From NCBI GenBank assembly GCA_041748855.1, contig JBGTCK010000038.1, positions 14,514 through 78,513 on the forward strand: a DNA stretch of 64,000 bases, in the 5' to 3' direction. This document shows positions 1,037 through 56,881 of the stretch, one piece after another (positions within the stretch are counted from its first letter, which is position 1; the number at the start of each line of letters is the position of its first letter). Made by a program: the position numbers and the translations under genes. This DNA is from Acidimicrobiia bacterium (GTDB lineage Bacteria; Actinomycetota; Acidimicrobiia; Spongiisociales; ZC4RG35). Below the pieces are notes generated by a model that had not been told where the DNA came from, did not search any database, and saw only the letters and a list, made by a program, of their open reading frames with translations.

Positions 1037-3091
1037 ATGACGGAAATGATCCTGTATATCGCGCTTGCCGCGGGTCTGGCCTCGCTGCTACTGGCGACCT
1101 ACTACACCCGGGTGGTGCTGGCGGCACCGCAAGGCAATGAGCGAATGATCGAGCTCTCGGCTGCGATTCGAGCCGGGGCGATGGCCTTCATCCGCCGTGA
1201 GTACATGTGGGTTTCGGTATTCGTCGTAGTCATGGGCGCTCTCATCGCGGTGTTCCTCGATTGGGGCTGGCCGTGGGGAGCAGCTGCCTATGTATTCGGA
1301 GCGGTGCTCTCCGCGGGGGCTGGCTTCGTCGGGATGCGGATCGCAACTGCAGCCAACTCCCGGACCACGGAGGCGGCGCGTTCCGGTGGGATAACTGCAG
1401 CCCTTCCGGTCGCATTCCGGGGCGGGGCCGTCATGGGCTTCACGGTGGCCGGTCTCGGTCTCCTAGGCATCGGGTTGGGCTTCCTGGTCTTCAACCAGAT
1501 CCTCGAAGATCCCGACTGGGCCGAAATCATCACCGCAATCGGTCTCGGGGGGTCGTCAATCGCCCTTTTCGCCCGAGTTGGTGGAGGTATCTACACGAAA
1601 GCGGCTGACATCGGCGCCGACCTCGTGGGCAAAGTCGAAGCGGGCATTCCCGAGGATGATCCCCGCAACCCGGCAGTCATCGCCGACAACGTCGGAGACA
1701 ACGTAGGTGACGTCGCCGGCATGGGTGCGGACCTCTTCGAATCCTACGTCGGCTCGATTGTGGCCCCGATTGTCTACGCCGCCCTCGCCTTCGGCGGGCT
1801 TGCATTTCAAGCAGAGGCGATCATCTTCCCGCTTGCGGTAGCCGCCCTCGGCATGTTTGCGGCGATCATCGGCTCGTTCCTGGTGCGGGCCAAGAGCGAC
1901 GACGACCTTGCTGCTGCACTCCATCGCGGCACCAACTTCTCCCTCATCGCGACGGCGGCCGGGGTTCTGGGCCTTGTCTACTGGATCTTCGGCGACACCG
2001 CGGAAAACCCGCTTGGCCTCTGGATTGCAGTCGTCGCCGGGCTCGTCGTCGGCTGGTTCGTCGGGAAGATCTCCGAGTGGTTCACCTCAGACCACTACAA
2101 GACAGTCAAGGAAATCGCCCGCCAGGCACAGACCGGCCCCGCCACCGTGATCATCACCGGTATTGCTGAAGGAATGCGTTCAGCGGCCTTCTCGGTGATG
2201 GTGGTCGCGGCAGGAATCGGCGCCGCATTCTTCGCCGGCGATTGGGCACTGGGCGACGGTGGAGGAATCTACGGGGTCGCTATCGCCGCCATCGGCGTGC
2301 TTGCCACCCTCGGAATCACGATCTCCGTCGACGCTTATGGCCCGATTGCGGACAACGCCGGGGGCATCGCCGAAATGGCACACCTCCCCGCTGAGGTCCG
2401 CGAAGCGACCGACGCCCTCGACTCGTTGGGGAATACCACGGCAGCCGTCGCCAAGGGGTTTGCCATCGCCTCGGCAGCGGTCACCTCGTTGGCCCTCTTC
2501 GCCGCCTTTACACAGGCCGTCCAACTCGAGTCGATCGACATCACCAATGTCGAAACCGTTATCGGGCTCTTCATCGGGGGGATGTTCCCGTTCCTGTTTG
2601 CCGCGATGACCATGAACGCCGTGGGCCGCGCAGCCAACAAGATGATCGACGAAGTCCGGCGCCAGTTCCGTGAGATTCCGGGGCTGAGGGAAGGACACCC
2701 TGACGCCAAGCCCGACTACACGACTTGTGTGGACATCGCTACTGCGGGTGCTCTCCGGGAGATGGTCATCCCTGGCTCATTGGCCGTTGCCCTTCCGCTT
2801 GTTGTCGGCTTCATCGATGTCGAAGCGCTTGGAGGTCTCCTCGCCGGTGCCCTAGTGACCGGCTTCCTCCTCGCCATCTTCATGGCGAATGCAGGTGGGG
2901 CATGGGACAACGCCAAGAAGTTCATCGAGACCGGAGCCTTCGGCGGCAAGGGCAGCGAAGCACATCACGCGGCGGTGATCGGCGACACGGTTGGCGACCC
3001 GTTCAAGGACACCTCGGGGCCGGCGATGAATATCGTGATCAAAGTCATGACCATCGTTTCGCTGATCTTCGCCTCGGCATTCATCGGTTGA
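1037..3091 (+). CDS. hppA: membrane-bound H+/Na+-translocating pyrophosphatase
   Basis: 684-aa multi-TM ORF with the signature motifs GDNVGDVAGMGADLFES and GDTVGDPFKDTSGP. Confidence 0.95.
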   Translation: MTEMILYIALAAGLASLLLATYYTRVVLAAPQGNERMIELSAAIRAGAMAFIRREYMWVSVFVVVMGALIAVFLDWGWPWGAAAYVFGAVLSAGAGFVGMRIATAANSRTTEAARSGGITAALPVAFRGGAVMGFTVAGLGLLGIGLGFLVFNQILEDPDWAEIITAIGLGGSSIALFARVGGGIYTKAADIGADLVGKVEAGIPEDDPRNPAVIADNVGDNVGDVAGMGADLFESYVGSIVAPIVYAALAFGGLAFQAEAIIFPLAVAALGMFAAIIGSFLVRAKSDDDLAAALHRGTNFSLIATAAGVLGLVYWIFGDTAENPLGLWIAVVAGLVVGWFVGKISEWFTSDHYKTVKEIARQAQTGPATVIITGIAEGMRSAAFSVMVVAAGIGAAFFAGDWALGDGGGIYGVAIAAIGVLATLGITISVDAYGPIADNAGGIAEMAHLPAEVREATDALDSLGNTTAAVAKGFAIASAAVTSLALFAAFTQAVQLESIDITNVETVIGLFIGGMFPFLFAAMTMNAVGRAANKMIDEVRRQFREIPGLREGHPDAKPDYTTCVDIATAGALREMVIPGSLAVALPLVVGFIDVEALGGLLAGALVTGFLLAIFMANAGGAWDNAKKFIETGAFGGKGSEAHHAAVIGDTVGDPFKDTSGPAMNIVIKVMTIVSLIFASAFIG

Positions 3092-3150
3092 GGTCGGCAT
3101 TGGACGACCCTGCATGTAGGAGCTCTCGCCGCGATCAGGGCCGGCAGGGT

Positions 3151-3426
3151 GTCTCCTCCCGCCAGCGGCAGGACAGCTACGCGACGGGAGTACCGCAGCC
3201 CGCGTCTCTCCCTCCGCTTGCGGAGGGAGTACCGGCGACGAAGGAGCCGGGGAGGGTGGGAGGTTCCCACCAACGCTGGTTGCGCCGCGACCTCGCTCAC
3301 CCAAATGAGTTTCGAGCCCCCATACCTCCCCGCCCTCGGAGGGCGGGGAGGGACCTTTCCCCCATTCGGCTCCGCCTCTGGGGGAACAGCTTCGCGGACT
3401 TTCCTCCCGCAAGCGGGAGGACAGCC
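3151..3426 (+). repeat. mosaic hairpin-rich intergenic repeat, copy 1 (+ orientation)
   Basis: Shares ordered conserved blocks (CGCGTCTCTCCCTCCGC..GGAGGGAGTACC, GGGGAGGGTGGG..CCCACCAACG, CCCCC.TACCTC, GGGACCTTTCCCCCATTCGGCT.CGCCTCTGGGGGAACAGC) with 14246-14465, 38124-38426 and 47121-47362. It consists of several perfect GC-rich hairpins. Confidence 0.85.
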
Positions 3427-3449
3427 TTGAGCTTCGTCCGGGCGCGATA

Positions 3450-4688
3450 TTGAAAGAAGTCACTTTCATCCGCCACGCAGAGTCGGCCGCCAACAGCGCC
3501 GGGATCTGGAACGGGAGGTCGGACGGTCCGTTGAGCGAAGTGGGCCACGCCCAGCTCGAGGCAATAGGGGAGAGACTCCGCGATTCGGTCTTCGACGTCG
3601 TGATCTCCTCTCCGCTGGAGAGGGCGCGCCGGACCGCGGCAGCCTTCAGTGAAGATGTTGTGCTCGACCCCGAGTTCGTGGAGATCGACCTCGGCCGTTG
3701 GGACGGGTGGACCACCGAGGAAGTGCAGAGTCAGGACGCGAACGCCCTCCGGACTGCGATAAGCAGTCGGACCTCTCCGATGGGCGCCACGGGTGAAACC
3801 CTCAACGAGGCAGGGGAAAGGGTGCTCAATGCCGTCGACAAGCTGGTGGCCTCCCTGCCCGACGAATCATCTGCCGCAGTGGTCACCCATGGGGGACTGC
3901 TCCAGACGGTACTCCACCAATATCTACCGGGCGGATCGCATCGAGCCCACGCGTTTGTGGACAATTCAGCGATCACCACCGTCCGCTTTTTCGACGACGA
4001 CCACTCGAGGCTGGCAACTTTCAACGACACCGGCCATCTCGGTCCGCGCCCTTCCCAGGTTGCTGAATTCCTCGCTGCGGGCCGGCCTGTCGTCTCGCTC
4101 ATCCGCCATGGCCAGACCAAGGCAAACGTCGAGCAGCGGTGGCAGGGGCAGGGAGACTGGGACCTCGACGAAGTCGGCTATAGCCAGGCTGCTGCCCTTG
4201 GCTCTTTCTACGGGAAGTGGAGCAGCGTTTTCAGCTCGCCTTTGCAGCGAGCAAAGAACACAGCAGGTTTCGTGGCGGAGGCAGAGCCGACCTTGGTGGA
4301 TGGCCTGAAGGAGTTGCATATGGGTGAGTGGGAGGGGCTGACCACTCCCGAGATCGAGGCTCGCTGGCCCGACGTGTTGGAGGAGATCTACGGCAAAGGT
4401 GTCGATCTGAAACGGGGCACGACCGGCGAGTCGTGGGCCGAGCTGACCGCACGGTTCACGTCGGCGATCGACACGATAGAGCCAGCATCCGGCGAGCCGA
4501 CAGTGGTGGTGGCCCACGGTGGTGCGATCCGCGCCTACATCTCCTCGCTCACCGCCACGACCGACACCTACGCCGAAAGCCTTTACACCCCGCGCAATAC
4601 CAGTATCAGTCACGTCGCTCTCACCGATCGGGGCCCTCTCATCTTGGATTACGGCGTTGCGTCACACCTCGAGGCCCTGGAGTCATGA
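3450..4688 (+). CDS. tandem (two-domain) histidine phosphatase, PGM/CobC family
   Basis: 412 aa with a TTG start. There are two complete histidine-phosphatase domains, each with an RH[AG] motif (FIRHAES, LIRHGQT), SSPL.RA..TA and a distal THGG/AHGG. Confidence 0.85.
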   Translation: MKEVTFIRHAESAANSAGIWNGRSDGPLSEVGHAQLEAIGERLRDSVFDVVISSPLERARRTAAAFSEDVVLDPEFVEIDLGRWDGWTTEEVQSQDANALRTAISSRTSPMGATGETLNEAGERVLNAVDKLVASLPDESSAAVVTHGGLLQTVLHQYLPGGSHRAHAFVDNSAITTVRFFDDDHSRLATFNDTGHLGPRPSQVAEFLAAGRPVVSLIRHGQTKANVEQRWQGQGDWDLDEVGYSQAAALGSFYGKWSSVFSSPLQRAKNTAGFVAEAEPTLVDGLKELHMGEWEGLTTPEIEARWPDVLEEIYGKGVDLKRGTTGESWAELTARFTSAIDTIEPASGEPTVVVAHGGAIRAYISSLTATTDTYAESLYTPRNTSISHVALTDRGPLILDYGVASHLEALES

Positions 4689-13107: not shown

Positions 13108-13641
13108 ATGTCAGCACAATCGGTCGATCTCTACAACACGTTCCTGGCGACGCTCGCCCTGATCTCGCTGGCCGGCGCGCTCGGCCTCGTGGTCTACCGG
13201 GTGGCCAAAGGGAAAGAGGCTGCGCTCTCGTTGCTTGGAGACTCTGCATTGTGGTTGGCGTGGCTGGTAGCCGCGGTGGCAACTGGCGGCTCGTTGATCT
13301 ATTCAGGGTGGATTCACTTCCTCCCATGTCGGCTCTGCTGGTACCAGCGGATCGCGATGTATCCGCTTTCGGTCATCCTCCTCGTCGGTGCGCTTCGCAA
13401 GGAGCTGGTGGTTCGCTACTACGCACTCCCCCTCTCGCTGGCCGGCGCTCTTACTTCGGTCTGGCACTACCTGCTCCAGCTGAACCCGTCGCTGGAGGGG
13501 GGATCGTGTGACCCGAATAATCCATGCTCGCTCAAGTATGTGGACGTCTTCGGCTTCGTGTCGATCCCATTTATGGCGGGATCCGGGTTTATCCTCATCT
13601 CTGTATTGCTTGCCTTCTACATGAGAACTGAACGTGAATAA
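13108..13641 (+). CDS. disulfide bond formation protein, DsbB/BdbC family
   Basis: 4-TM protein with PCRLCWYQR, the BdbC-type CxxC. The ATG at 13108 is in frame with the ORF-track start at 13087. Confidence 0.8.
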   Translation: MSAQSVDLYNTFLATLALISLAGALGLVVYRVAKGKEAALSLLGDSALWLAWLVAAVATGGSLIYSGWIHFLPCRLCWYQRIAMYPLSVILLVGALRKELVVRYYALPLSLAGALTSVWHYLLQLNPSLEGGSCDPNNPCSLKYVDVFGFVSIPFMAGSGFILISVLLAFYMRTERE

Positions 13642-14245
13642 GAAACTTCTTGGAATCATCGGCGGGGTCGTCGGCCTCGCCCTAATCGTCCTTCTGGCAG
13701 TGGCTATTGCCGGCGAAGAGGAGGCTGACGCCTCGATCGGATTTGGCGATCCGGTAGTCACCGGCGACCCGCTCCCCGTCTACAACAGTGGTTCACCCAC
13801 CGACCCGGTGGTCGGTTTGCCCGCTCCCGAAACCGTCGGTGCGGACTGGGAGGAGAACGAGGTGAGGATCGAAGCGGACGGGCGCCCGAAGCTGGTCCTC
13901 TTCCTCGCCCACTGGTGCCCCCACTGTCAGGCTGAAGTCCCGGTCGTCCAGGACTGGCTGGATGCCGGGAACCTGCCCGACGATGTCGATATCTACTCGA
14001 TAGCCACACAGACCGACCGTCTCCGCCCCAACTGGCCGCCCCAGGATTGGCTGGAAGACGAAGGCTGGACCGTGCCGGTGATCATGGACGATCAGATCGG
14101 GACTGTAGGCGCTTCTTATGGCACCGCGGGGACCCCGTTCTACGTGGTTCTCGACGGTGACAACAACGTGGTCCGCCGGGTCTCCGGCGAGATCGGCACC
14201 GCTGGTCTAGACATCCTGGTCGCCGAAGCTCAAGCCGCGGGGTAA
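13634..14245 (+). CDS. membrane-anchored thioredoxin-like thiol-disulfide oxidoreductase (TlpA/ResA-like)
   Basis: N-terminal TM helix and an AHWCPHCQ active site. The GTG start overlaps the DsbB-like gene by 8 nt. Confidence 0.8.
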   Translation: MNKKLLGIIGGVVGLALIVLLAVAIAGEEEADASIGFGDPVVTGDPLPVYNSGSPTDPVVGLPAPETVGADWEENEVRIEADGRPKLVLFLAHWCPHCQAEVPVVQDWLDAGNLPDDVDIYSIATQTDRLRPNWPPQDWLEDEGWTVPVIMDDQIGTVGASYGTAGTPFYVVLDGDNNVVRRVSGEIGTAGLDILVAEAQAAG

Positions 14246-14465
14246 CAGTCCCCCGGAGCACCTCGACACGCGTCTCTCCCTCCGCTTGCGGTGGGAGTAC
14301 CTTCGACCTCTGAGGTCGAAGGGGAGGGTGGGGCGTTCCCGCCAACGGAGCTTGCTGCGCGACTGCTCTCAACTAGTGGAGTTCTCAGTCCCCCTTACCT
14401 CTCGGCCCTTTCGGGCCGACAGGGACCTTTCCCCCATTCGACTTCGTCTCTGGGGGAGCAGCCGC
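14246..14465 (+). repeat. mosaic hairpin-rich intergenic repeat, copy 2 (+ orientation)
   Basis: Same ordered blocks as copy 1. It fills the whole gap between convergent genes (stops at 14245 and 14475). Confidence 0.85.
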
Positions 14466-14474
14466 TTCAGAGAA

Positions 14475-14915
14475 CTAGTTCTCTAAAGCTCGGATCTTTT
14501 CCAGGCGTCTCACGTGGCGGTCTTCTCTGGAGAATTTGGCCTGGAGGAAGGCGTTGATCAGCTCCATGGCCACTTCCGATCCGATGACACGTGCTCCGAG
14601 GCAAAGGACGTTGACGTCGTCGTGTTCCACCATCTGACGGGCCGTGTAAGTGTCGTGGGCGACGGAGGCCCTGATCCCGTTGAGCTTGTTGGCGGCCACG
14701 GCCGCGCCCGCGCCTGATCCGCAGATGATGATGCCTCGATCGGCCCGGCCGTCGAGGACTGCGGAGGAGACTGCAGCCGCATAGTCCGGGTAGTCGACGG
14801 GGTCGGTGTTGTGGGTCCCCAGGTCGTAGACGGCGTGGCCCGACTCGGCGAGCCAGGAAGCGAGTTGGTCTTTGAGCGTGTAGCCGGCGTGGTCGGAGCC
14901 AAGTGCAATTCTCAT
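14475..14915 (-). CDS. rpiB: ribose-5-phosphate isomerase B
   Basis: [15 protein letters not shown]...ICGSGAG...; a 146-aa RpiB/LacAB family protein. Confidence 0.92.
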
Positions 14916-17471: not shown

Positions 17472-18188
17472 GTGATCGATCCCAAGCTTCTCGACGCGGC
17501 CCGTGACGGTGACCGGCGGGCCCTGGCCCGGGCCATCAGCGGCATCGAGACTTCACCCGACGGACCGGAGATCAAACGCGACCTGTCCGTGCCGATCGTC
17601 GGGATCACCGGGCCACCCGGAGTGGGTAAATCGACCCTGGCCAACGCTCTGATCAAGACGCTGCGCGCTGACTCGAGACGGGTCGGAGTTGTTGCGGTCG
17701 ACCCTTCGAGTCCGATCACGGGCGGAGCGCTGCTCGGTGACCGGATCAGGATGCAGGACCATATCGGGGATGAGGGGGTCTTTGTCCGCTCCATGGCGAC
17801 GCGGGGCAGGCTGGGCGGCCTGTCTGCGGCAACCCGCCGGGCGGCGAGTCTGATGACCACGTCCGATTTCGACATCGTGCTGGTGGAGACGGTTGGTGTC
17901 GGCCAGTCGGAGGTCGAAGTCATGGACGTTGCCGACCTGGTGGTGCTGGTGCTCGCTCCGGGATGGGGAGATCAAATCCAGGCAGACAAGGCCGGTATCA
18001 TCGAAATCGCCGACCTGTTCGTGATCAACAAGGCCGACCGCGAGGAGGTGGCGCCGTTGCGCCGGGCTCTGCACGAGATTGCCGGGAATACCGAACGGGA
18101 GCGCCCCATCGTCGAAACCGTCGCCACCACCGGCGAAGGCGTCGACGCGCTCCTCGCTACGATCGACAGTCTTGTGGCCGGCAGCTAG
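17472..18188 (+). CDS. MeaB/ArgK-like G3E-family GTPase (short form)
   Basis: GPPGVGKST (P-loop), ETVGVGQSE and INKADR. At 238 aa it lacks the C-terminal extension of typical ~320-aa MeaB. GTG start. Confidence 0.75.
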   Translation: MIDPKLLDAARDGDRRALARAISGIETSPDGPEIKRDLSVPIVGITGPPGVGKSTLANALIKTLRADSRRVGVVAVDPSSPITGGALLGDRIRMQDHIGDEGVFVRSMATRGRLGGLSAATRRAASLMTTSDFDIVLVETVGVGQSEVEVMDVADLVVLVLAPGWGDQIQADKAGIIEIADLFVINKADREEVAPLRRALHEIAGNTERERPIVETVATTGEGVDALLATIDSLVAGS

Positions 18189-25072: not shown

Positions 25073-26275
25073 GTGATCGATTGGCTGGTCAACGGAGCTC
25101 AGAACGACACGTTTCTGACAACGCCCGAGGGCAGTGTCACCTATCGCCAGGTGTTCGACGCCATGGACGTCACGGTGACGGGACGGACCACGGTCCTCTC
25201 CCCGGAACCCGACCTCAGTTCGGTCCTGGCCATTTTTGCCGCCATCTCCGACGGCCCCCTCATCCTCAAGCCCCGGCAGGGATGGATCGACACCGTGATC
25301 CCCGAATCGGTGATGACTTTGCTGTTCACCTCCGGTAGCAGCGGCACCCCGAAGGCTGTTCCGCTTACCGTGGCCAACTGGAAGGCGGCAGTTGGCGCCT
25401 CCGCGGCTCATCTCGGCCACACCCCCGGGGACGAGTGGCTGATCGCGATGCCGCTCCACCATGTCGGCGGGCTCTCGGTCCTGTTCCGCTCTGCCTATGT
25501 CGGGGGGCGGGTCAGGATGCTGTCCCGTTTCGAGGCGGTCAGCTTTGCCGATGCGCTCTCCGATGATGTCACTTTTGCCTCGGTCGTGCCGACCATGTTG
25601 CGCCGGGTCCTCGACGTCGACGACCGCTCCTACCGGGGACTCAAGGCGATGCTGGTCGGCGGTGGGCCGATTCCGCCCGGCCTGCTCGAGGAGGCATGGG
25701 GGAGGGGGATCCCGGCGATGCCCACCTACGGGATGACCGAGACCTGCGCCCAGGTGGCGACGCTGGAGCCGGGCTCGGGGCTTGCCTACCGGGTCCATCC
25801 GCTTCCCGGGATCGAAATACGGATCGAAGGCGATGGGCGGATCGCCTTGCGCGGCCCCCAGGTTTTCGGCGGCTACCTCGGTGAGGAGCAGCGTGACCCC
25901 GACGACTGGTTTGTCACCGGCGATCTCGGCCGGCTTCACGACGATCGGTCTCTGCAGGTGCTGGGCCGGGCGGATGATGTCATTGTCACCGGAGGCGAGA
26001 ACGTAGACCCGGCCGCGGTCGAAGCAGTGTTGTGGGGGCTGGACGGTGTGGAGGGGGTGATGGTGGTAGGAATCCCGTCGGAGGAGTGGGGTAACGAGGT
26101 CGTCTGTCTCTTCACGGGCACGGTCACCGAATCCGACCTGGACCGGTGGGCCCGAGATCGTCTGGGGCCTTCCCAGGTGCCGAAACGCTGGATCGAGGTC
26201 AAATCTGTCCCGACCACCCCTCTCGGCAAACCCGACCGTGCGGCGGGAAGCAGTCTCGTTGGGAGACTGGGCTAG
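25073..26275 (+). CDS. menE: o-succinylbenzoate--CoA ligase
   Basis: AMP-binding motifs LLFTSGSSGTPKAV, TYGMTETC and TGDLG. It is short (400 aa) and lies next to menB/menA. Confidence 0.8.
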   Translation: MIDWLVNGAQNDTFLTTPEGSVTYRQVFDAMDVTVTGRTTVLSPEPDLSSVLAIFAAISDGPLILKPRQGWIDTVIPESVMTLLFTSGSSGTPKAVPLTVANWKAAVGASAAHLGHTPGDEWLIAMPLHHVGGLSVLFRSAYVGGRVRMLSRFEAVSFADALSDDVTFASVVPTMLRRVLDVDDRSYRGLKAMLVGGGPIPPGLLEEAWGRGIPAMPTYGMTETCAQVATLEPGSGLAYRVHPLPGIEIRIEGDGRIALRGPQVFGGYLGEEQRDPDDWFVTGDLGRLHDDRSLQVLGRADDVIVTGGENVDPAAVEAVLWGLDGVEGVMVVGIPSEEWGNEVVCLFTGTVTESDLDRWARDRLGPSQVPKRWIEVKSVPTTPLGKPDRAAGSSLVGRLG

Positions 26276-37020: not shown

Positions 37021-38115
37021 ATGACCGAATTCCCCGAACACCATCACTCCACGCCAGAGGAGCCGTCCCCGCGTGAGAGCAAGTGGTTTGCACGGCTCCT
37101 GCTGATGCTGTTAGTCGTGGGCTCGGCGGCCGGGATCACCTGGTTGGTCGCCACATCTCCGCCGGAACCCGAAGTGGCCGCCGTTGAGGAAACCACTACG
37201 ACAACTGAGCCTCTCGAAGTTCCAGTAACCACCCCTCTCGCAGGTGTTGAGCCGATCGCTGATGCCGCAGAGAAGATTTTGCCTTCTGTCGTCCAGATCA
37301 GGACAGCAGATGGGGTCGGGTCGGGCGTCGTCTTCGGTGAGGGGCTCATTCTGACCGCCGCCCACGTCGTCGAAGGCGAGACAACGGTGCAGGTCCGGCT
37401 CGAGGATGGAGAAAACGTAGAAGGCACCGTGCTCGGAGGCACTGCCGAAGCCGATATTGCAGTGATCCAGATCGACCGGACCGATGTCCCGGTGGCCACG
37501 CTCGCCCTGGACTACACGCCCCGGGTCGGCCAGACCGCCATCGCGGTCGGATCACCTTGGGGGCTCACCTCGACTGTCACCGCAGGCATCATCTCCGCCG
37601 TCAACCAACCGCTGGGTTGTGCACCGGGAGGTGTGTGCAGATCGATGCTGCAGACCGATGCCGCGATCAACCCGGGTAACTCCGGAGGTGCCCTCCTCGA
37701 CCGCGAGGGTCGGGTGCTGGGGATCAACGTCTCGATCTTCTCCCTTTCGGGGGCGAACGATGGCGTCGGGTTCGCCGTGCCGATCGATGTTGCATATGAC
37801 ATCGCGCAAGCAGTTATCGCAGGGGAAAACATCGAGTTCGCCTTCCTCGGGGTGATGGGCGAGGACGTCACCACCGGCCAGGCCGGTGCTCGGATAACCG
37901 ATGTGATGGAAGGCGGTGCAGCCGCCGAAGCCGGCTTCGAGGTGAACGACCTGGTCATTTCCATCGACGGGGTCAGAGTGCAGGGCATCACCGACCTGGC
38001 TTCACAGGTCCGGACTCACCGCCCGGGAGAACTGGTCGAGTTCACCATCATCCGCGACGGAGCTGAGATCACCCTCCAAGCCACCCTAGGAGTCCGCGAA
38101 GACGAAGCCAGCTGA
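37021..38115 (+). CDS. HtrA/DegP-family serine protease with PDZ domain
   Basis: N-terminal TM helix, a trypsin-like core (TAAHVV, DIAVI, GNSGGAL) and a C-terminal PDZ domain. The arrangement of response regulator, kinase and protease resembles mprA-mprB-pepD. Confidence 0.9.
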   Translation: MTEFPEHHHSTPEEPSPRESKWFARLLLMLLVVGSAAGITWLVATSPPEPEVAAVEETTTTTEPLEVPVTTPLAGVEPIADAAEKILPSVVQIRTADGVGSGVVFGEGLILTAAHVVEGETTVQVRLEDGENVEGTVLGGTAEADIAVIQIDRTDVPVATLALDYTPRVGQTAIAVGSPWGLTSTVTAGIISAVNQPLGCAPGGVCRSMLQTDAAINPGNSGGALLDREGRVLGINVSIFSLSGANDGVGFAVPIDVAYDIAQAVIAGENIEFAFLGVMGEDVTTGQAGARITDVMEGGAAAEAGFEVNDLVISIDGVRVQGITDLASQVRTHRPGELVEFTIIRDGAEITLQATLGVREDEAS

Positions 38116-38123
38116 TTCATGCA

Positions 38124-38426
38124 AGGGGGCGACCCCTGATCTGCCCCCGGAGGCGGAGCCGAATGGGGGAAAGGTCCCTGCGCCCCCAGCGAGCGAGCGA
38201 GCGGCTGTTCCCCCGGAGGCGAAGCCGAATGGGGGAAAGGTCCCTGCGCCCGACGAAGGAGGGCGGAGGTAAGGGGGCATGAAACCTCTCCAAGTTGAGA
38301 GCAGACGCGTCAACGGAATACGTCGATCAACGTTGTTGGGCACGAGCCCCCTCCCCGGCTCCTTCGTCGCCGGTACTCCTCCCACCCTTCGGGCGGTGGA
38401 GAGTTGTAGTCGGAGGGAGAGGCTCC
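38124..38426 (-). repeat. mosaic hairpin-rich intergenic repeat, copy 3 (- orientation)
   Basis: The reverse complement aligns block-for-block with copies 1 and 2. The GGGACCTTTCCCCCATTCGG...GGGGG module is present twice, separated by a (GCGA)4 microsatellite. Confidence 0.85.
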
Positions 38427-38439
38427 TGGACATCCGCTA

Positions 38440-38648
38440 TGCTGGGTTTGCCCGTCATATGCGGCGGGTGTCTGAAGAGCAGCGAAGTCGGTTGGATCCC
38501 GGCGCTGTCCCGCAACTGTGATGCCTCATCTGAGGACGAGCCAGGTCGCCTGATCTCCAGACCACAGAGAAGTCTCGGATGAAGACGGACCAGGTGACTC
38601 AGGGAAGCCACCCCATCTTCATCCTCCGGAACACGGAGGATGTTTCAT
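38440..38648 (+). promoter_or_regulatory. cobalamin (B12) riboswitch with SD-sequestering expression platform
   Basis: The core GCGAAGTCGGTTGGATCCCGGCGCTGTCCCGCAACTGTGA (38485-38522) and the B12-box-like GAGCCAGGTCGCCTG (38538-52) match the consensus as I remember it. The hairpin CATCCTCCG-GAACA-CGGAGGATG (38620-42) buries the GGAGGA SD 9 nt before the ATG at 38650. The downstream genes are B12 uptake and adenosylation. Confidence 0.75.
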
Positions 38649-38649
38649 T

Positions 38650-39627
38650 ATGAGAAGGTATTCCCTTCTGATCTCACTCGTGCTGGTTGCCTCTGCCTGC
38701 GGCAGCGACGGCGCAACGACAACGATCGCTTCGGGCGTCACGACGACCACTGTCGGCGAGACCACGACCACCTTGGCGGAGACCACAACCACCGCCGGCA
38801 GCGGATTTCCGGTGACGGTGCAGGCAGCGAACGGCGCGGTCGAGATCGCAGCGATGCCCACTGCGATCGTCTCGCTGTCGCCCTCGGCCACCGAGAACCT
38901 GTTTGCCATCGGTGCCGGCGACCAGGTGGCGGCGGTTGACGATCAGTCGAATTACCCGGAGGAGGCACCAGTTACTGATCTCTCCGGATTCACACCGAAC
39001 CTCGAGTCAATCCTCAGCTATGAGCCCGATCTGGTGGTCATCACCTTCGATCCCGGTGATCTGATTGCTGGGTTGAACGCGGTCGGAATCCCAACCTTGC
39101 TGCTTCCTTCGGCAACTTCGATTGACGATGCTTTTGTTGAGATCGAGACGCTTGGAGTCGCCACCGGACATGTAGGCGAGGCTGCTGAAGTGGTGTTGGC
39201 CATGCAAATTGACATCGATGAGGTTGTCGCCGAGTTCGGTGAGGAGCTTGCCGGTGTAACCATCTATCACGAGCTGGACAACACCCTCTACTCGGTCTCG
39301 TCATCGAGCTACGTGGGTGAGCTTTACAGCCGCCTCGGCCTCGTCAACATCGCAGATGAGGCAGATCCTGATGGTTTCGGCTATCCACAACTCTCTCCCG
39401 AGTACATCGTGTCCGCCGACCCCGATGTGATCTTGCTCGCCGATGCGGCTTACGGGGAGTCGATCGACACGCTGCGGGAACGGCCAGGATGGGCGGAGAT
39501 GACCGCAGTCCAGTCCGAAGCGGTGGTCGAAATCGATCCTGATCGTGCATCCCGGTGGACTCCGCGCAGTGTGGAGTTCTTGCGAGAGGTCGCCGAAGCC
39601 ATCGCCCTTCTGGTGCCGGTTGGTTGA
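38650..39627 (+). CDS. ABC transporter substrate-binding lipoprotein, BtuF/FhuD-like (cobalamin/siderophore class)
   Basis: Lipobox LVASACGS and a Thr-rich linker, then a class III periplasmic-binding-protein pattern. Sits under the B12 riboswitch. Confidence 0.8.
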   Translation: MRRYSLLISLVLVASACGSDGATTTIASGVTTTTVGETTTTLAETTTTAGSGFPVTVQAANGAVEIAAMPTAIVSLSPSATENLFAIGAGDQVAAVDDQSNYPEEAPVTDLSGFTPNLESILSYEPDLVVITFDPGDLIAGLNAVGIPTLLLPSATSIDDAFVEIETLGVATGHVGEAAEVVLAMQIDIDEVVAEFGEELAGVTIYHELDNTLYSVSSSSYVGELYSRLGLVNIADEADPDGFGYPQLSPEYIVSADPDVILLADAAYGESIDTLRERPGWAEMTAVQSEAVVEIDPDRASRWTPRSVEFLREVAEAIALLVPVG

Positions 39628-44779: not shown

Positions 44780-46495
44780 ATGCTCATCGCCGGGACGGAC
44801 GTAGGATTGGCGCCGCTGCCGCCCAGAGTAAGGACATCAACCTTGAGCACGCCATTTGAGATCTCCGACCGCCTCACCGAGCAGTTCTGTGACCTGTCTC
44901 CGATAGATGCGACCGGCGCCGGTGTCCCCGGCCGTGACCATCTGTGGGACGACACATCACCGGAAGGGCACGCGGCCAAGGCAGCTTTCTATTCCTCTGC
45001 GATTGCGGAGCTTGCACCCTACCTCGGCCATCCCGAGCAAAAGCAGGCCGTTGCAGCGCGGGTCGTCTCGGCGGCGCTGCAGGAGCTTCTCCAGCGGTTC
45101 GATGAGGGCCAATACCTCGCCGACCTGAACCATATTTTCAGCCCTCCCCAGATCTTTCGTGACATCTTCGATCTGATGGACCCGAACACCGACCACGGCT
45201 GGGAGGCAATTGTTGCGCGGCTCGGATCGATCGGAACACCGCTCGCCGGGTACCGGATGTGCCTGGAGAAAGGCATCGAGACCGGGAAGACGGCCGCACG
45301 GCGCCAGGTGGAGTCGGTGATCGAGCAGAGCCGCTCGCTGGCCTCCGGCGAATCTCGATTTCTCAAGTACGTGGAGATGGCACGCGAGACCGGCCGTGAC
45401 GTGGAGACTATCCAGGACGCGGTCGACGAGGCTCGCCGGGAATATGGCGAGCTCGCCGATTGGCTTGAAGCCACCTATTTACCGGAGGCTGCCGAGTCGG
45501 ACGCGGTCGGGAGAGAGCGGTATGTGCGCGCTGCGGACTACTTCCTTGGCATCACCATCGATCCCGAGGAGACGTACAAATGGGGGTGGGACGAGGTGCA
45601 CCGACTCCGTGCCGAGATGGAAGAGACGGCGGCTGAAATCGACGCTGACAAATCCATCGAGGAGGTCATCGAGCTGCTCGACACCGACCCCGAGCGGTCG
45701 GAGCCGTCACATGAGGCGTTTGCCGCGTTCGTGGAGAAGATCCAGGCGGACGCGGTCGAGCAATTGGCCGGGGAGCACTTCGACGTGCCCGATGAATTGC
45801 GCAAAGTCACCGTCAACATCGCACCCGGTGATGGTGCGCTCGGCGCCTGGTACCACCCGCCTTCGGAGGACATGAGCCGTCCGGGGTCGATCTGGTACGC
45901 GCCGGGCTCACGCACCGCCATCCCGGTGTGGCAGGAGGTGTCCACCGCATATCACGAGGGTTTCCCGGGCCATCACCTCCAGGTGGGGACTGCGGTGATG
46001 CTCAAAGACGAAGTGTCACGGTTTCACCGGCTATTTCTCTGGAAGTCCGGCGCCGGCGAAGGTTGGGCGCTCTACGCGGAGAGGCTAATGGATGAGCTGG
46101 GATTCTTCTCCAATCCCGAGCACCGGCTCGGGTTGTTGGCCAGCCAGCTGTTCCGGGCCACCCGGATCGTCGTCGACATCGGCACCCAGCTCGAGCTTGC
46201 GATCCCCGATGACGCTCCGCTCCATGCCGGGGAGATCTGGAACTATGGAATTGCTGTCGACTACATGGACAAGGTCGGTCTCCAGGAGAGGGATGTGGCC
46301 GAGTCCGAAGTGAAGCGTTACTTGGGCTGGTTTGGCCAGGCGATCTCCTACAAGGTCGGCGAACGAGAAATCCTGAAGATGAGAGAGGCCCGCAAGAAGA
46401 AGGATGGTGCCGATTTCGATATCCGACTCTTCCACAGAGATCTGCTCGAAGCAGGAGCCATCCGGCTCGATCAGGTTTGGGACCTGGTTGTTTGA
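44780..46495 (+). CDS. DUF885 family protein
   Basis: 571 aa with the family hallmark HEGFPGHHLQ. Confidence 0.8.
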   Translation: MLIAGTDVGLAPLPPRVRTSTLSTPFEISDRLTEQFCDLSPIDATGAGVPGRDHLWDDTSPEGHAAKAAFYSSAIAELAPYLGHPEQKQAVAARVVSAALQELLQRFDEGQYLADLNHIFSPPQIFRDIFDLMDPNTDHGWEAIVARLGSIGTPLAGYRMCLEKGIETGKTAARRQVESVIEQSRSLASGESRFLKYVEMARETGRDVETIQDAVDEARREYGELADWLEATYLPEAAESDAVGRERYVRAADYFLGITIDPEETYKWGWDEVHRLRAEMEETAAEIDADKSIEEVIELLDTDPERSEPSHEAFAAFVEKIQADAVEQLAGEHFDVPDELRKVTVNIAPGDGALGAWYHPPSEDMSRPGSIWYAPGSRTAIPVWQEVSTAYHEGFPGHHLQVGTAVMLKDEVSRFHRLFLWKSGAGEGWALYAERLMDELGFFSNPEHRLGLLASQLFRATRIVVDIGTQLELAIPDDAPLHAGEIWNYGIAVDYMDKVGLQERDVAESEVKRYLGWFGQAISYKVGEREILKMREARKKKDGADFDIRLFHRDLLEAGAIRLDQVWDLVV

Positions 46496-47097
46496 GCAAG
46501 CAGTACTTCGATTTCGAGGACACTGCCGGCAGGGACCGGTACAAGCTGTTGTCCGGTTTGATCGTGCCCCGGCCCATCGGTTGGATCGGGACCCGGAGGG
46601 CGAATGGCACCTTCAACCTCGCCCCGTTCTCGTTCTTCAATGTGGTGTCGACCGCGCCCCCGACCGTCCTCTTCAGTGGGAGCTCGCATTCCGACCGGCC
46701 CAAGGACTCCATCACCCTGGCGGAGGAGTCGGGCGAGTTCACGGTGAACATCGTCTCCGAGGAGGTGGCACAGGCGATGTCGGTGACTGCGGGGTCATTC
46801 GGCCCCGACGACGACGAGTTCGCCATCGCCGGGCTAACCGCGGTTGTGGGTACGGTGGTCGAAGCCCCGATGGTCGCCGAGTCGCCCGCCAATCTCGAGT
46901 GCCGGGTCACCAAGGTGCTCGACGTGGGTGAAGGCCTCACCCGGATCGTCGTGGGCCGGGTAGTGGCGCTCCATGTCGAAGAGTCAGTTTTAGACGGCAC
47001 ACGGATCGATGCCCGCAGTCTCCGTGCAGTGGGACGGATGTCGGGCAACAGCTACATAACCACCGAAGACGCCTTCGAACTAGAGCGGCCGGTCTAA
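46492..47097 (+). CDS. flavin reductase-like (FMN-binding split-barrel) protein
   Basis: YKLLSGLIVPRPIGWI...NLAPFSFFN. The TTG at 46492 overlaps the upstream stop (TTGA). The ORF-track start is 46477. Confidence 0.8.
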   Translation: MSKQYFDFEDTAGRDRYKLLSGLIVPRPIGWIGTRRANGTFNLAPFSFFNVVSTAPPTVLFSGSSHSDRPKDSITLAEESGEFTVNIVSEEVAQAMSVTAGSFGPDDDEFAIAGLTAVVGTVVEAPMVAESPANLECRVTKVLDVGEGLTRIVVGRVVALHVEESVLDGTRIDARSLRAVGRMSGNSYITTEDAFELERPV

Positions 47098-47120
47098 CCC
47101 TCACCTCGCACTTGCGGGCT

Positions 47121-47362
47121 TGGACTGTTCTCCCAGCGACCGGAGGGAGCCGCTGTTTCCCCGGAGGCGAAGCCGAACGGGGAAAAGGTCCCTGCCGGCC
47201 CAAAGGGGCCGGGAGGTAAAGGGGGCTGGGACTCGCCAAGTTGAGAGCGGTCGGTTACAAGCTCCGTTGGTGGGATCGCCCCACCCTCCCCTCCGACCTA
47301 AAGGTCGGAGGTACTCCCTCCGCGGGCGGAGGGAGAGTGGCAAGCGGAGGGAGAGTCGCGTC
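47121..47362 (-). repeat. mosaic hairpin-rich intergenic repeat, copy 4 (- orientation)
   Basis: The reverse complement aligns with copy 2 over nearly its full length. It fills the gap between convergent stops at 47097 and 47379. Confidence 0.85.
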
Positions 47363-47378
47363 TGGAGGTGCTCGCTGG

Positions 47379-48524
47379 CTACCGCTTGCAGTCGAACTGG
47401 AGCAGCGTCGGGTAGGGGTTGACCGCGTTGCCGTTCAGGTAGATGCCGAAGTGGAGATGCGGTGATGTGCCGCGGGCGTTGCCGCTGGTGCCGACGTACC
47501 CGAGGACCTCCCCGGCCGTCACTTTGCGGTCCTTGCCGTTGAATCCATCCATGTGGCTGCCGAGGTAACGGGCTCCGTCATCCCCATGGAGGAAGAACTG
47601 GTTGCCGCCGATCGATCCGACGATGTACTCCACGGTGCCTGAGACCGGCGCCACCACCGGCGTTCCCCTGCTAATGAACAAGTCGTTGCCTTCGTGATAG
47701 CGACCACCGGCCCGGGGAAAGCCCCAGTCGTTGAAGAAGCTGGCTGGCCCGACGGGGCAGATCCAGCTCGATCCGGACGGCACGTTGAGGCTTTGGCCCG
47801 ACCTGATCACATTGGGGTTGCTCAGGTTGTTCATGCTGACCAGCGTCGAAACGCTGGTCGCGTGGCGGGCTGCGATATCGCCGAGCCGGTCGCCGGACTT
47901 CACGGTGTAGGTGCCGGTACCGGGCGCCCCGGCGGCGACGTATCCAGGCCCATTGAGGAAAAGTCGGGCGCCGGTGTAGACGGTGTTTCCCACGATCCCG
48001 TTGGCCGTCCGGATGTCGGCCGCAGTCACGCCCTTGTACTTGGCGGCAATGCCCTCGACGGTTTCCCCGCTCTTGACTATGTGATAGTCGCCGCTGCGAT
48101 TGACTGTAGCCGGCGAGGACGCGCCGGGGGTGGTCGTCCTGGTTCCTGAAGACGACGAGCTTGCCGCCGGGACCAGGATTTCCTGGCCAATCAGGATCAG
48201 GTTCGGGTTGGCTAGCGCATTTGCATCGGCAAGGGTCCGCGCCGTGGTCCCGTAAGCGAGGGCGATCTTGCCCAGGGTCTCACCACGAGCGACTATGTGG
48301 ACCTGGTCGGTTCCGGGTATTACCAGGGTCTGGCCCGGGTAGATCAGGTTCGGGTTGGCCAGGTTGTTGGCATCGATCAGCTCGTTGAGCGAAATGCCGT
48401 TTTCCTGGGCGATGCGAGCCAGGGTGTCGCCGCGTTCGACGGTGTAGTCGAGGGAGAAGAGACCCACGAGGAGGGCGATCACGATGGCGACCACTGCTGC
48501 TCGGGCGCGACGGTTTTCAGGCAT
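47379..48524 (-). CDS. LysM-repeat (x4) M23 peptidoglycan endopeptidase
   Basis: N-terminal TM helix and four LysM repeats (Y.V..GDTL..IA...), then a C-terminal M23 domain ([22 protein letters not shown]). Confidence 0.9.
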
Positions 48525-49972: not shown

Positions 49973-50989
49973 ATGAAACTCGACTACTACTTCCCGCCTT
50001 CGCCGCCCGACGGAGCTGTGGCTGCGTCCCGGATGGCCGAAGACCTGGGCTATGACGGATTCTTTTCGGCAGAAACCCAGTATGACCCGTTCCTGCCACT
50101 CTCCTTTGCCGCAGCTGAAACCGACCGGATCGATTTGGGCACGTCTATCGCCGTTGCGTTTCCCCGATCCCCGATGACGACTGCCATGATGGCCTGGGAC
50201 CTCGCCCGCCTTTCCCGGGGAAGGTTCGTCCTTGGCTTGGGGACCCAGATCAGGGCCCACATCACCCGCCGCTTCTCGACGGAGTGGGGTAACCCCGGGC
50301 CTCGCCTCCAGGACTACATCACCGCGATGCGCGCCATCTGGGACACGTGGCAAAACGCAACACCGCTGCGGTACAAGGGCGAGTTCTATGAATTCACCCT
50401 GATGACGCCCTTCTTCAACCCGGGGCCGATTCCCCATCCTGATATCCCGGTCTACATCGCCGGGGTCGGTCCGTGGCTCTCCCGGATGGCTGGAGAAGTG
50501 TGCGACGGCTTTTTCGTTCATCCCTTTCATACCGCCCGGTACCTGGATGAAACGGTTCTCCCCAATATGGAGCAGGGTGCTGTCGCGGCGGGGCGGCAGT
50601 TGGCCGATGTCGAGAGGGCGACCTCGGTATTCGTGATGACGGGGGAGAATCAGTCCGAGATCGAACAGGCAATGGAACCGGTGCGCCAACAGATCTCGTT
50701 TTATGCCTCCACGCCGTCTTACAACCATGTGCTCGAAGCCAACGGATGGGACTTTGGTGAGCAGCTCAACGCGATGTCCAAGCGCGGCGAGTGGGCGGAC
50801 ATGCCGTCGATAGTTCCCGACGAGGCGGTCCTCGAGGTGGGCGTCGCCGCCCCAATCGACGAACTCGCCGCTGCGATCAAGGACCGCTACGAGGGGCGGG
50901 TGCAGCGCATCGGCTTCTACGGTATCGGCTCGGGGGGATCGTTGACCGACGAACAAGTCGGCGCCGTGATGAGCGGATTGCGCGCTTAG
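49973..50989 (+). CDS. LLM-class F420-dependent oxidoreductase
   Basis: MKLDYY...LGYDGFFSAETQYDPFLPL...LGTSIAVAFPRSPM...GRFVLGLGTQ matches the luciferase-like TIGR03617-type pattern as I remember it. Confidence 0.8.
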   Translation: MKLDYYFPPSPPDGAVAASRMAEDLGYDGFFSAETQYDPFLPLSFAAAETDRIDLGTSIAVAFPRSPMTTAMMAWDLARLSRGRFVLGLGTQIRAHITRRFSTEWGNPGPRLQDYITAMRAIWDTWQNATPLRYKGEFYEFTLMTPFFNPGPIPHPDIPVYIAGVGPWLSRMAGEVCDGFFVHPFHTARYLDETVLPNMEQGAVAAGRQLADVERATSVFVMTGENQSEIEQAMEPVRQQISFYASTPSYNHVLEANGWDFGEQLNAMSKRGEWADMPSIVPDEAVLEVGVAAPIDELAAAIKDRYEGRVQRIGFYGIGSGGSLTDEQVGAVMSGLRA

Positions 50990-55489: not shown

Positions 55490-56744
55490 GTGGAAGAGCC
55501 GCAATGTAGCCATCCTCTCCTGGCTGTTCCCGATCACTGGTGTGGCGGTCGCGATGATCGCCTTTCCCCTGGCTGTCGTCGATCCTCTCTGGCTCATTAT
55601 CGGGGTTGCGGCACTGGTAATCGGGTCGTTGATTGGAGTTGCCACCAGCAACTCGGGAAACCGTTTCACAACCGGGCTCGCCGTAGCTGCAGCACTGCCG
55701 CTTGTTTTTGTCAATGGCGAAGGCGGTGTCGACTTCGCCGGTGTCGTGGTCGTGTATGGGCTGGGCCTGTCGGTGGTCTGGGCCTTGCGCCTGTCCCGGG
55801 GCGAGAGCCATGCCGAGCTGTTACCGACGTTGGTAAGGCGGCTGGCCGGCTACTACATCTACGCCCTCGTCTACACCTCGATGCGAGTCGGAGCCTTCAG
55901 GGAGTTCGACGGAGATTGGGATGACCTGCTTCCGATAGGGGTAGCCGTCATTGCCTGGCTCGCGGTTGAGGTTGGTCTGCGCGCTCTGCTCGTGCTCGGC
56001 CCCCGGGAACTGTCCCGAACCTACCTCGCCCGGGCGTTGCTCCACGATCTCAACGTCTTCCTCGGCCTGGCGCTGACCGGTGCCCTCTTTGGCGAGTTGC
56101 TCGTACCTCTGAAGTGGTGGGCGTTGCCGATCGCCCTGCTGCCCTATACGTTCGCCCATACCGCCTTCGCCCGGTTCCAGGAGACCAAAGTCACCTATAA
56201 ACAGACCATCCGGGCATTGGCCCGGATCCCGGAGGTTTCCGGACTTGGAGTCGATGGTCATGCCGACCGCACCACTGAAATCGCAGCAGCCATCGCCAAG
56301 GAGATCGGTCTGGGACCGGTCCAGGTAGAGCAAATCGAGTTCGCCGGGCTGATGCACGACATCGGCCGGGTCAGCCTCAACGAGCCACAGGTCTTGAAGA
56401 TGGGCTACAGCGACGACGACATCGCGCGCTGGAGCGCCGAGATCATCGCCGAGGCACCCTATCTCGACCGTGTGGCAGGCGATGTCCGCAACCAGTATGA
56501 GCCCTTCCGACGTCCTGGTGAAGACATCGATCCCGGCATCTCCATCATCTCCCGGGTGATCAAAGTGTCCGCTGCCTACGACTGGCAGGTATACCAGGAA
56601 GGACGGACCCCTTTGCAGGCCCTCGAGCATCTCCATGCCGGGACCGCATACGAGTACGACCCTCAGGTGGTGGCCTCATTGCGCCGGCTCCTCACCACCC
56701 GTGGCGTCCTGGAAACCGGCCCTGCCCACATCGGGGCGCACTAA
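55482..56744 (+). CDS. membrane-bound HD-domain protein, degenerate HD-GYP paralog
   Basis: Same architecture as the upstream gene. GHADRTTEIA and GLMHDIGR are retained, but there is no HHExxDGxGYP segment. GTG start overlaps the upstream gene by 8 nt. Confidence 0.8.
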   Translation: MAEWKSRNVAILSWLFPITGVAVAMIAFPLAVVDPLWLIIGVAALVIGSLIGVATSNSGNRFTTGLAVAAALPLVFVNGEGGVDFAGVVVVYGLGLSVVWALRLSRGESHAELLPTLVRRLAGYYIYALVYTSMRVGAFREFDGDWDDLLPIGVAVIAWLAVEVGLRALLVLGPRELSRTYLARALLHDLNVFLGLALTGALFGELLVPLKWWALPIALLPYTFAHTAFARFQETKVTYKQTIRALARIPEVSGLGVDGHADRTTEIAAAIAKEIGLGPVQVEQIEFAGLMHDIGRVSLNEPQVLKMGYSDDDIARWSAEIIAEAPYLDRVAGDVRNQYEPFRRPGEDIDPGISIISRVIKVSAAYDWQVYQEGRTPLQALEHLHAGTAYEYDPQVVASLRRLLTTRGVLETGPAHIGAH

Positions 56745-56745
56745 A

Positions 56746-56872
56746 CCGCATCGATTTGCATTGTGCTCAGGGGGCCGGAATCCGCATCGATTTGCTCAGC
56801 GTGGGTTGTGACCGGGTTGCACTGTGCTCAGGGGCTCGAAATCCGCACCGATTTGCACTGTGCAAACCGTGG
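56746..56872. repeat. local imperfect direct repeats containing operator-like palindromes
   Basis: Three copies of ATCCGCA(T/C)CGATTTGC and three of TTGCA(T/C)TGTGC. The last forms the perfect palindrome TTTGCAC-T-GTGCAAA (56853-56867). Confidence 0.7.
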
Positions 56873-56881
56873 TTGGCGCTG

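Follow-up and report, generated by a model that had tools for sequence, protein, structure and literature searches.

A multi-hairpin repeat in four intergenic gaps

The window (the whole stretch of 64,000 nt analysed here, with a G+C content of 62-63% and a GC skew of one sign throughout) contains four copies of a non-coding repeat of roughly 200-280 bases, and the segment at 14246-14465 that was flagged in a preliminary description of the sequence is one of these (Table 1). All sequences quoted in that description are present in the places assigned to them, and the short seed motif GGGRRRACAG was not found in the window outside the four copies. The copies differ in composition at their ends: the core of copy 1 carries on each side a hairpin-ACAGC module which is a shorter relative of the 3' module of the unit (CCTCCCGC-AA-GCGGGAGGACAGC), and the doubled 3' modules of copy 3 are the 39-nt period reported by Tandem Repeats Finder. 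An orthologue of copy 1 was found in L014 (MAG contig JBHJOQ010000140). Next to copy 2 there is also a perfect palindrome which runs into the end of rpiB; L092 and L094 have hairpins like it, but L093, a genome in which the corresponding site is empty, does not.

Table 1. Positions of the repeat copies, the parts of copy 2 and the neighbouring features in the window
Feature	Position	Strand	Remarks
H+-pyrophosphatase gene	1037-3091	+	flanks copy 1
Copy 1	3148-3427	+	core 3197-3393; short modules 3154-3176 and 3399-3424
Histidine phosphatase gene	3450-4688	+	flanks copy 1
TlpA/redoxin-like thiol:disulfide reductase gene	13634-14245	+	stop codon adjoins copy 2
Copy 2	14246-14468	+	whole element; occupies the entire intergenic gap between the convergent TlpA-like and rpiB genes
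H1 of copy 2	14276-14297	+	CTCCCTCCGC-TT-GCGGTGGGAG; one T.T mismatch; stem conserved in the family, no covariation
Linker GAGTACC of copy 2	14295-14301	+	conserved; precedes H2
H2 of copy 2, class A	14300-14322	+	CCTTCGACC-TCTGA-GGTCGAAGG
Linker GGGGAGGG and H3 of copy 2	14321-14347	+	H3 GGTGGG-GCGTT-CCCGCC with one U.G pair, then AACG
H4 variable segment and small hairpin H5 of copy 2	14348-14381	+	H5 CTCTC-AACTAG-TGGAG
Linker TTCTCAGTCCCCCTTACCTC of copy 2	14382-14401	+	near-invariant
H6 of copy 2, class b	14402-14419	+	TCGGCCC-TTTC-GGGCCGA; closing T:A is C:G in copy 4
3' module of copy 2	14420-14463	+	linker CAGGGACCTTT, H8 (outer CCCCCA/TGGGGG, inner GAC/GTC, two covarying pairs), tail GCAGC
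Palindrome AGAGAAC-TA-GTTCTCT	14469-14484		overlaps the stop and last codons of rpiB
rpiB	14475-14915	-	stop codon borders the other side of the copy 2 gap
HtrA-like protease gene	37021-38115	+	flanks copy 3
Copy 3	38134-38440	-	antisense to both neighbours; 3' modules at 38200-38246 and 38141-38198
39-nt period	38143-38251		Tandem Repeats Finder
Cobalamin riboswitch match	38434-38567	+	just under the Rfam gathering score
Hairpin CATCCTCCG-GAACA-CGGAGGATG	38620-38642		3' of the riboswitch match
BtuF-like binding-protein gene (Peripla_BP_2)	38650-39627	+	flanks copy 3
Flavin reductase gene	46477-47097	+	convergent with the LysM/M23 gene
Copy 4	47098-47378	-	core 47147-47345; on one side an extra H1 5' arm and leader (to 47373), on the other tail modules (to 47098)
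LysM/M23 peptidase gene	47379-48524	-	flanks copy 4
Different short repeat	56744-56882		three copies of about AATCCGCATCGATTTGCAYTGTGCTCAGGGG, internal palindrome TTGCACTGTGCAA

Organisation of the repeat unit

Read in the orientation of the preliminary description, the unit is a chain of short G+C-rich hairpins (H1, H2, H3, H4/H5, H6 and H8) with near-invariant linkers between them, ending in one to three copies of a module made up of C-tract, loop, G-tract and ACAGC, the number of which differs from copy to copy. At its 5' end a unit may have a leader (..ACCTC..ACGCG) and an additional H1 5' arm. In the family as a whole, H1 (CTCCCTCCGC/GCGGAGGGAG) is followed by linker GAGTACC, H2 (either class A, CCTCCGACC/GGTCGGAGG, or class B, CCGGC/GCCGG) by linker GGGGAGGG, H3 (GGTGGG/CCCACC) by AACG, and H5 (CTCTC/GAGAG) by linker TCTCAGTCCCCCTTACCTC, the H4/H5 part differing among copies in both length and pairing register. 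The H6 position is occupied by four hairpin classes across the family, and the unit closes with linker CAGGGACCTTT, H8 (outer stem CCCCCR/YGGGGG, inner stem GRC/GYC) and the tail AACAGC.

Conservation, across copies as well as species, is highest in the unpaired linkers GAGTACC, GGGGAGGG, TCTCAGTCCCCCTTACCTC, CAGGGACCTTT and AACAGC. Among the stems, a T/A variant in the H1 5' arm (CTCCCTCC vs CTCCCACC) is tightly linked to a T/G variant in the H3 5' arm (GGGTGGG vs GGGGGGG), with 13 T/T, 7 A/G, 2 T/G and no A/T copies (alignment columns 12 and 72); within the window it is copy 3 that differs from copies 1, 2 and 4. Copies of the A/G type gain a mismatch in both the H1 and the H3 simple hairpins, and the linkage may reflect either two subfamilies or an alternative fold.

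Paired changes preserve the hairpins

The observation from which this analysis started, that the segments between the conserved blocks vary in sequence while the hairpins are kept, holds in larger alignments. We aligned 30 3' halves with plain MAFFT and compared a hand-drawn structure with the same structure after sliding the partners by one to three columns: 90.6% of cells were paired vs 44-62% with slid partners, and 11 pairs contained 72 cells altered on both sides, a number reached in none of 500 shuffles. A covariance model alignment of the 3' half of 53 distinct copies gave a similar picture: of 27 modelled pairs, 19 were altered on both sides (154 cells), and 91.5% of cells were paired, compared with 46-62% after sliding of the partners and with no shuffle among 500 attaining the observed value. 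Loops are free to vary, and the stems remain paired.

Covariation was clearest in H8, where the outer variable pair is A:T in 23 copies, G:C in 23, A.C in five and G.T in none (p=1e-9), and the inner variable pair is A:T in 16, G:C in 28, A.C in two and G.T in one (p=1.6e-9). All four allele combinations of these two pairs occur, and the cross-associations between the 5' base of one pair and the 3' base of the other are weak (p=0.12 and 0.08), so the covariation is pair-specific and simple two-haplotype linkage is ruled out. H2 class A has undergone two double changes from C:G to T:A independently of each other, one being the difference between copy 2 (CCTTCGACC/GGTCGAAGG) and copy 4 (CCTCCGACC/GGTCGGAGG) that had already been pointed out, the other located at another position in L034 and L069. 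After GAGTACC, copies 1 and 3 have an unrelated hairpin (CCGGC-GACGAAGGA-GCCGG), and the hairpin after CCCCCTTACCTC occurs in the four variants listed in the preliminary description. That description spoke of compensatory substitutions between copies, which is correct for the changes within a class (H2 class A, H6 class b and H8), whereas classes differ from one another by exchange of the entire hairpin.

The outer stems of H1 and H3 are essentially invariant, with covariation not above that of shuffles, and a long-range helix proposed by RNAalifold (GAGGG.GGG/CCCCCUU) is invariant at every position and thus lacks covariation. The GGTGGG/CCCACC stem had been said to tolerate only G:U-type changes; this does not hold, as GGGGGG stands opposite CCCACC, with a G.A mismatch, in 10 of 32 copies, and one subfamily has a mismatch in the stems of both H1 and H3.

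Coding capacity, strand and expression signals

Open reading frames crossing the copies were confirmed to lie in different frames: two of the conserved blocks are 25-29 nt apart, and as this spacing shifts by one or two bases, their relative frame takes all three values modulo 3. A short repeated peptide would find some support in the ORFs of 66-115 codons that traverse each copy and in a PPYL...GTFPPFG stretch common to copies 1 and 3, but hairpin lengths differ by non-multiples of three, the complementary strand lacks a stop-free frame in 13 of 25 copies, and no reading frame is open in all copies; the unshared frames effectively refute this reading, to which we assign next to no probability. 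For annotation, this means that ORFs called across the repeat-bearing gaps are spurious. The wider proposal that selection acts on secondary structure, and not on primary sequence or an encoded peptide, therefore stands with respect to the maintained pairing and the lack of a conserved peptide, but not with respect to primary sequence, since the linkers are the best conserved part.

The two strands are difficult to tell apart. On the strand of the preliminary description H6 and H8 together contain 8 G.U vs 15 A.C cells, the intermediates in the two covarying H8 pairs are A.C in seven cases and G.U in one, and in 20 of 25 copies folding favours the reverse complement, which is more stable by 4.7 kcal/mol on average, all of these strand figures being uncorrected for shared ancestry. 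The comparison of G:U content and of folding on both strands thus identified no clear strand, with a weak hint in favour of the complementary one. According to the preliminary description, equal folding of both strands without G:U asymmetry or transcription would favour a purely DNA-level selfish element, and in combination with the presence of copies in both orientations the result leans towards a DNA-level or orientation-independent repeat and not towards a strand-specific RNA. No σ70-like promoter was found in the two copies scanned (copies 2 and 3), nor was a hairpin-plus-U-tract terminator found in these copies or on either strand of 14100-14600.

Distribution and position relative to genes

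The family extends beyond the window to over 50 additional copies, found in 21 metagenome contigs and in the MAGs of three uncultured Acidimicrobiia. When 185,579 species genomes were searched for an exact 20-mer taken from the 3' module, it was present at 17 loci, all in three Acidimicrobiia MAGs; an 18-mer search matched 74 metagenome contigs of which 21 contained true copies as judged with nhmmer, and the covariance model of the 3' half gave 54 matches in the collected related DNA. At least five of the MAG copies are located at contig ends, as is usual for repeats, and the repeat explains the assembly breaks of MAGs of this lineage at these sites. Phage and plasmid collections gave no match, and viral contigs contained no copy, the single match there being the 18-mer itself and nothing more. 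Rfam has no family matching the repeat at the gathering threshold; under permissive settings (E<=10) its sole match was a chance hit to a miRNA model, the same search of the window also having matched a tRNA elsewhere, outside the repeat.

The repeat is found preferentially between convergent genes: this is the case for 16 of the 28 arrays with two callable neighbours, a count into which one orthologue pair entered twice, vs 11 of the 61 junctions in the window (18%; p~4e-6), with gene contexts taken from our own codon log-odds caller, which has known errors and of which the BtuF-like gene call was corrected by hand. Convergent gaps of the window without a repeat measure -23 to 78 nt, those with this element 229 and 281 nt, and one of 137 nt contains a different repeat. 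Copies begin 0-25 nt from stop codons and occupy the full gap. Both kinds of orientation relative to the flanking genes were seen, as in tandem gene contexts there are sense copies (copy 1, L011, L074) as well as antisense copies (copy 3, L009, L019). Elsewhere in the window 4-nt overlaps via shared stop codons are common among convergent genes (18185-18188, 26272-26275 and 50986-50989), which shows the compactness of the genome outside the repeat-bearing gaps.

Turnover at orthologous sites

We compared the TlpA/RpiB and flavin reductase/LysM gaps with the orthologous sites in related genomes, and found turnover at both. The TlpA/RpiB gap, with a + unit in the window, contains in L094 (85% protein identity) a - unit lacking the 3' module beside a decayed + leader, in L092 (94%) a different subfamily without H1, and in L095 (81%) an unrelated two-copy hairpin repeat (CGACGCTGCGCAGGGTTACGCTCTGAGCAACCTCGTGCAGCGTCG, L095 4613-4754), whereas in L093 (86%, on a 2.6-Mb contig) there is no gap at all, the stop codons overlapping as TTAA and the genes by 4 nt. 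It seems that palindromic repeats in general tend to land in this gap. The flavin reductase/LysM gap, with a - unit in the window, is reduced to 46 nt with just two tail motifs in L096 (94%), to tail modules only in L097 (92%) and to a tail-plus-leader junction with the core missing in L098 (91%), while L099 (81%) has two partial units in + orientation and L100 (70%, on the same 2.6-Mb contig as L093) has a 12-nt gap. Both sites are thus empty in the more distant relative represented by this contig (L093/L100).

A unit is present at the second site in L004 (94%; MAG contig JBBDMR010000158), with H2 class B replacing class A and with H1 broken by an IS481-family insertion: AT-rich DNA interrupts H1 at L004 1991-2159 (corresponding to about 47320 in the window), and the first 36 residues of an ORF in this insert match IS481-family transposases (tblastn, 71% identity over 31 residues), the contig ending at that point. 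Overall, units are gained, lost, inverted, cut short and doubled module by module, and modules are exchanged with other copies, such that the H2, H6 and H8 variants combine in most ways. Given this quick modular turnover and the empty or differing orthologous sites, the family is either young or confined to a sub-clade.

Where orthologous copies persist they change slowly. Copy 1 is 92-93% identical to its L014 orthologue, compared with 73-75% for the flanking genes at third codon positions and 61-75% in non-repeat intergenic DNA, and copy 4 is 83% identical to L004 over H8 to H3, with 63-68% at third positions. The divergence of these two orthologous copies is thus two to four times slower than that of synonymous sites, which is explained by either purifying selection or homogenisation by other copies; the H2 class swap in L004 shows that homogenisation does occur.

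Comparison with known interspersed repeats

Like the REP and BIME elements of Enterobacteria and Pseudomonas, the Acidimicrobiia repeat is extragenic, G+C-rich and composed of palindromic units, located at gene 3' ends in either orientation and at places that vary between strains; it is also a target of insertion sequences, as exemplified by the IS481-family element in H1 of L004, and IS insertion into REPs has been reported (PMC1525189). The mosaic of hairpin variants and conserved linker motifs is shared with BIMEs, as two H2 classes, four H6 classes and four H8 allele combinations reassort between invariant linkers, and tandem and partial arrays of units occur. The resemblance is architectural only, the sequences being unrelated, and the differences are considerable: a REP is a single imperfect palindrome of 20-40 bp, whereas the Acidimicrobiia unit, of about 200-280 nt, strings together six to eight different hairpins in fixed order, and it shows no sequence similarity to REPs. 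One end of a REP palindrome bears the tetranucleotide tag GTAG or CGTC (PMC3733652); here GTAG is found on none of the hairpins, and CGTC precedes H1 (GCGTCTCTCC) in about a quarter of copies, others having GCAACTCTCC, GATCTCTCC and similar sequences, so it is not a general tag. While REPs are tied to a RAYT gene (an IS200/IS605-type Y1 transposase), none is known for the Acidimicrobiia repeat, and a tblastn search of 683 kb of related DNA with IS200 TnpA, a weak test with an approximate query, gave nothing below E=0.6. The published list of phyla with REPs does not include this phylum (PMC3733652).

The BOX elements of Streptococcus pneumoniae (boxA-boxB(n)-boxC) are likewise composite and modular, similar in size and equipped with one variable-number module, boxB copy number being variable (PMC3049150), and they also share tight predicted folding, enrichment between convergent genes and restriction to a narrow clade (PMC3049150). 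BOX, RUP and SPRITE are all over-represented between convergent genes, which has been read as a sign of parasitic non-autonomous elements (PMC3049150). The variable module of BOX is internal, whereas that of the Acidimicrobiia repeat is the terminal 3' hairpin-ACAGC in one to three copies; furthermore, BOX has terminal inverted repeats that pair with each other, which the Acidimicrobiia element lacks, and the latter has many more hairpins. No sequence relation between the two is apparent.

MITEs such as Correia/NEMIS, ERIC/IRU and RUP are similarly small, non-coding, multi-copy and polymorphic in presence or absence, as was found here at orthologous sites, and when inserted in operons they are transcribed into structured RNA. 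Consistent terminal inverted repeats were not found in our element, the end matches being weak and copy-specific (35 nt at 71% in copy 1, 10 nt in copy 2), and no target-site duplication is visible at the empty sites of L093/L100, where the gene ends are highly diverged. The IS200/IS605-derived PATEs are marked by subterminal hairpins, a lack of terminal inverted repeats and a single orientation relative to replication; the repeat has hairpins at both ends, but the window contains two + and two - copies under a constant sign of GC skew, a small sample (n=4). By the defining features of these families the element is not a REP, BOX or MITE, and the closest comparators are the BIMEs for their mosaic logic and, for the combination of modules of which one varies in number, the BOX elements (PMC3049150, PMC3733652). 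It behaves like a member of the already known class of modular extragenic repeats (REP/BIME, BOX), the family itself being new.

Interpretation and alternatives

We hold with moderate confidence that an uncultured clade of Acidimicrobiia has a modular interspersed repeat specific to its lineage, which is non-coding and built as a mosaic in the manner of BIME and BOX, and that the flagged segment is a copy of this repeat. Its mosaic structure, variable module, preference for gene ends, occurrence in both orientations, turnover, narrow range and IS insertion place it in the class of small interspersed extragenic repeats. Such an element would persist as a non-autonomous, largely selfish repeat, as REP/BIME and BOX do, and would be tolerated where promoters are undisturbed. 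The hairpins may be kept since the single-stranded folded form matters for spread or retention, as DNA during replication or recombination, or as RNA in the 3' untranslated regions of flanking genes, where RNA-level hairpins are possible. The invariant linkers would probably be recognition sites for a putative protein, and each copy furnishes its neighbours with a long, very stable structured 3' end that could alter read-through and mRNA decay. The loci examined yielded no mobilising enzyme, and neither target-site duplications nor terminal inverted repeats were seen there; transposition is therefore inferred only from the differences in presence/absence and orientation, which could also come from deletion, inversion and gene conversion at long-occupied sites; moreover, orthologues diverge more slowly than would be expected of a copy that is immobile and purely selfish, unless gene conversion happens often.

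It is rather unlikely that the repeat is a host-serving RNA structure whose hairpins in the 3' untranslated region block 3' exonucleases and/or stop read-through between packed genes. The position of copies within 25 nt of stop codons, their filling of the whole gap and the slow divergence of orthologous copies compared with synonymous sites all suit such a role, and since both strands form hairpins, a single copy could serve both convergent genes. It also has precedent, as REP325 acts as a terminator as well as an mRNA stabiliser, the presence of a REP between convergent genes correlates with higher expression of the two, and a dual role has recently been argued for E. coli REPs (bioRxiv 10.64898/2026.03.23.713779). 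However, the convergent genes of the window mostly overlap or adjoin each other with no element between them, as do the same gene pairs in a relative, close relatives have other subfamilies, partial units or opposite orientations at the same site, the U-tract signature of terminators is absent, and simple stabiliser hairpins have no need of invariant linkers. Somewhat less likely again is a domesticated multi-hairpin module, with linkers bound by a dedicated putative protein or forming an RNA tertiary fold, that would serve this compact-genome lineage as a standard, portable 3'-end cassette, insulating and stabilising the transcripts of abutting genes; if true, this would account for the two to four times slower evolution of orthologous copies.

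We consider it improbable that structure is not selected at all, and that template switching in quasi-palindromes corrects the arms while gene conversion spreads hairpin modules, although this would agree with the rarity of intermediates (G.U or A.C in about 2% of H6 and H8 cells), with the many differences that are whole-hairpin swaps, with the module replaced inside the orthologous copy of L004, and with the four H8 allele combinations, which imply frequent exchange or recurrent change. It is difficult to reconcile with unrelated hairpin classes that all fold at one position, with stems staying paired while loops vary freely and with an element that is better conserved than adjacent neutral DNA, and arm correction leaves the invariance of the linkers unexplained. 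A multi-copy structured RNA gene with its own promoter, encoding a trans-acting small RNA of about 200 nt or something ribozyme-like, is very improbable: conserved unpaired segments between covarying stems are a classic signature of functional RNA, and the weak strand asymmetry (A.C over G.U by 7 to 1 in the two H8 pairs, better folding of the complement in 20 of 25 copies) points the same way, but there is no matching Rfam family, no promoter-like site was found in copies 2 and 3, the long-range RNAalifold helix does not covary, and units are often cut short, permuted or doubled by module and lie in either orientation packed against stop codons.

The interspersed-repeat reading adds a well-defined and unusually complex mosaic repeat family to the Acidimicrobiia, where the literature searched describes none, our search for such repeats in Acidimicrobiia or Actinobacteria having returned nothing relevant. 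With about 50 copies, several hairpin classes, and filled as well as empty orthologous sites, the family also constitutes a natural data set for separating selection from templated mutation in the conservation of hairpins.

Neighbouring features

Two other elements of the window were noted. The cobalamin riboswitch match beside copy 3 scored 29.6 bits vs a gathering score of 31.5 (E=1e-5), and the hairpin 3' of it would sequester the predicted ribosome-binding site before the ATG of the BtuF-like gene at 38650; as copy 3 adjoins the 5' edge of the match, the promoter of this operon must be located in or beside the repeat. Finally, the different short repeat at 56744-56882 fills another convergent gap.
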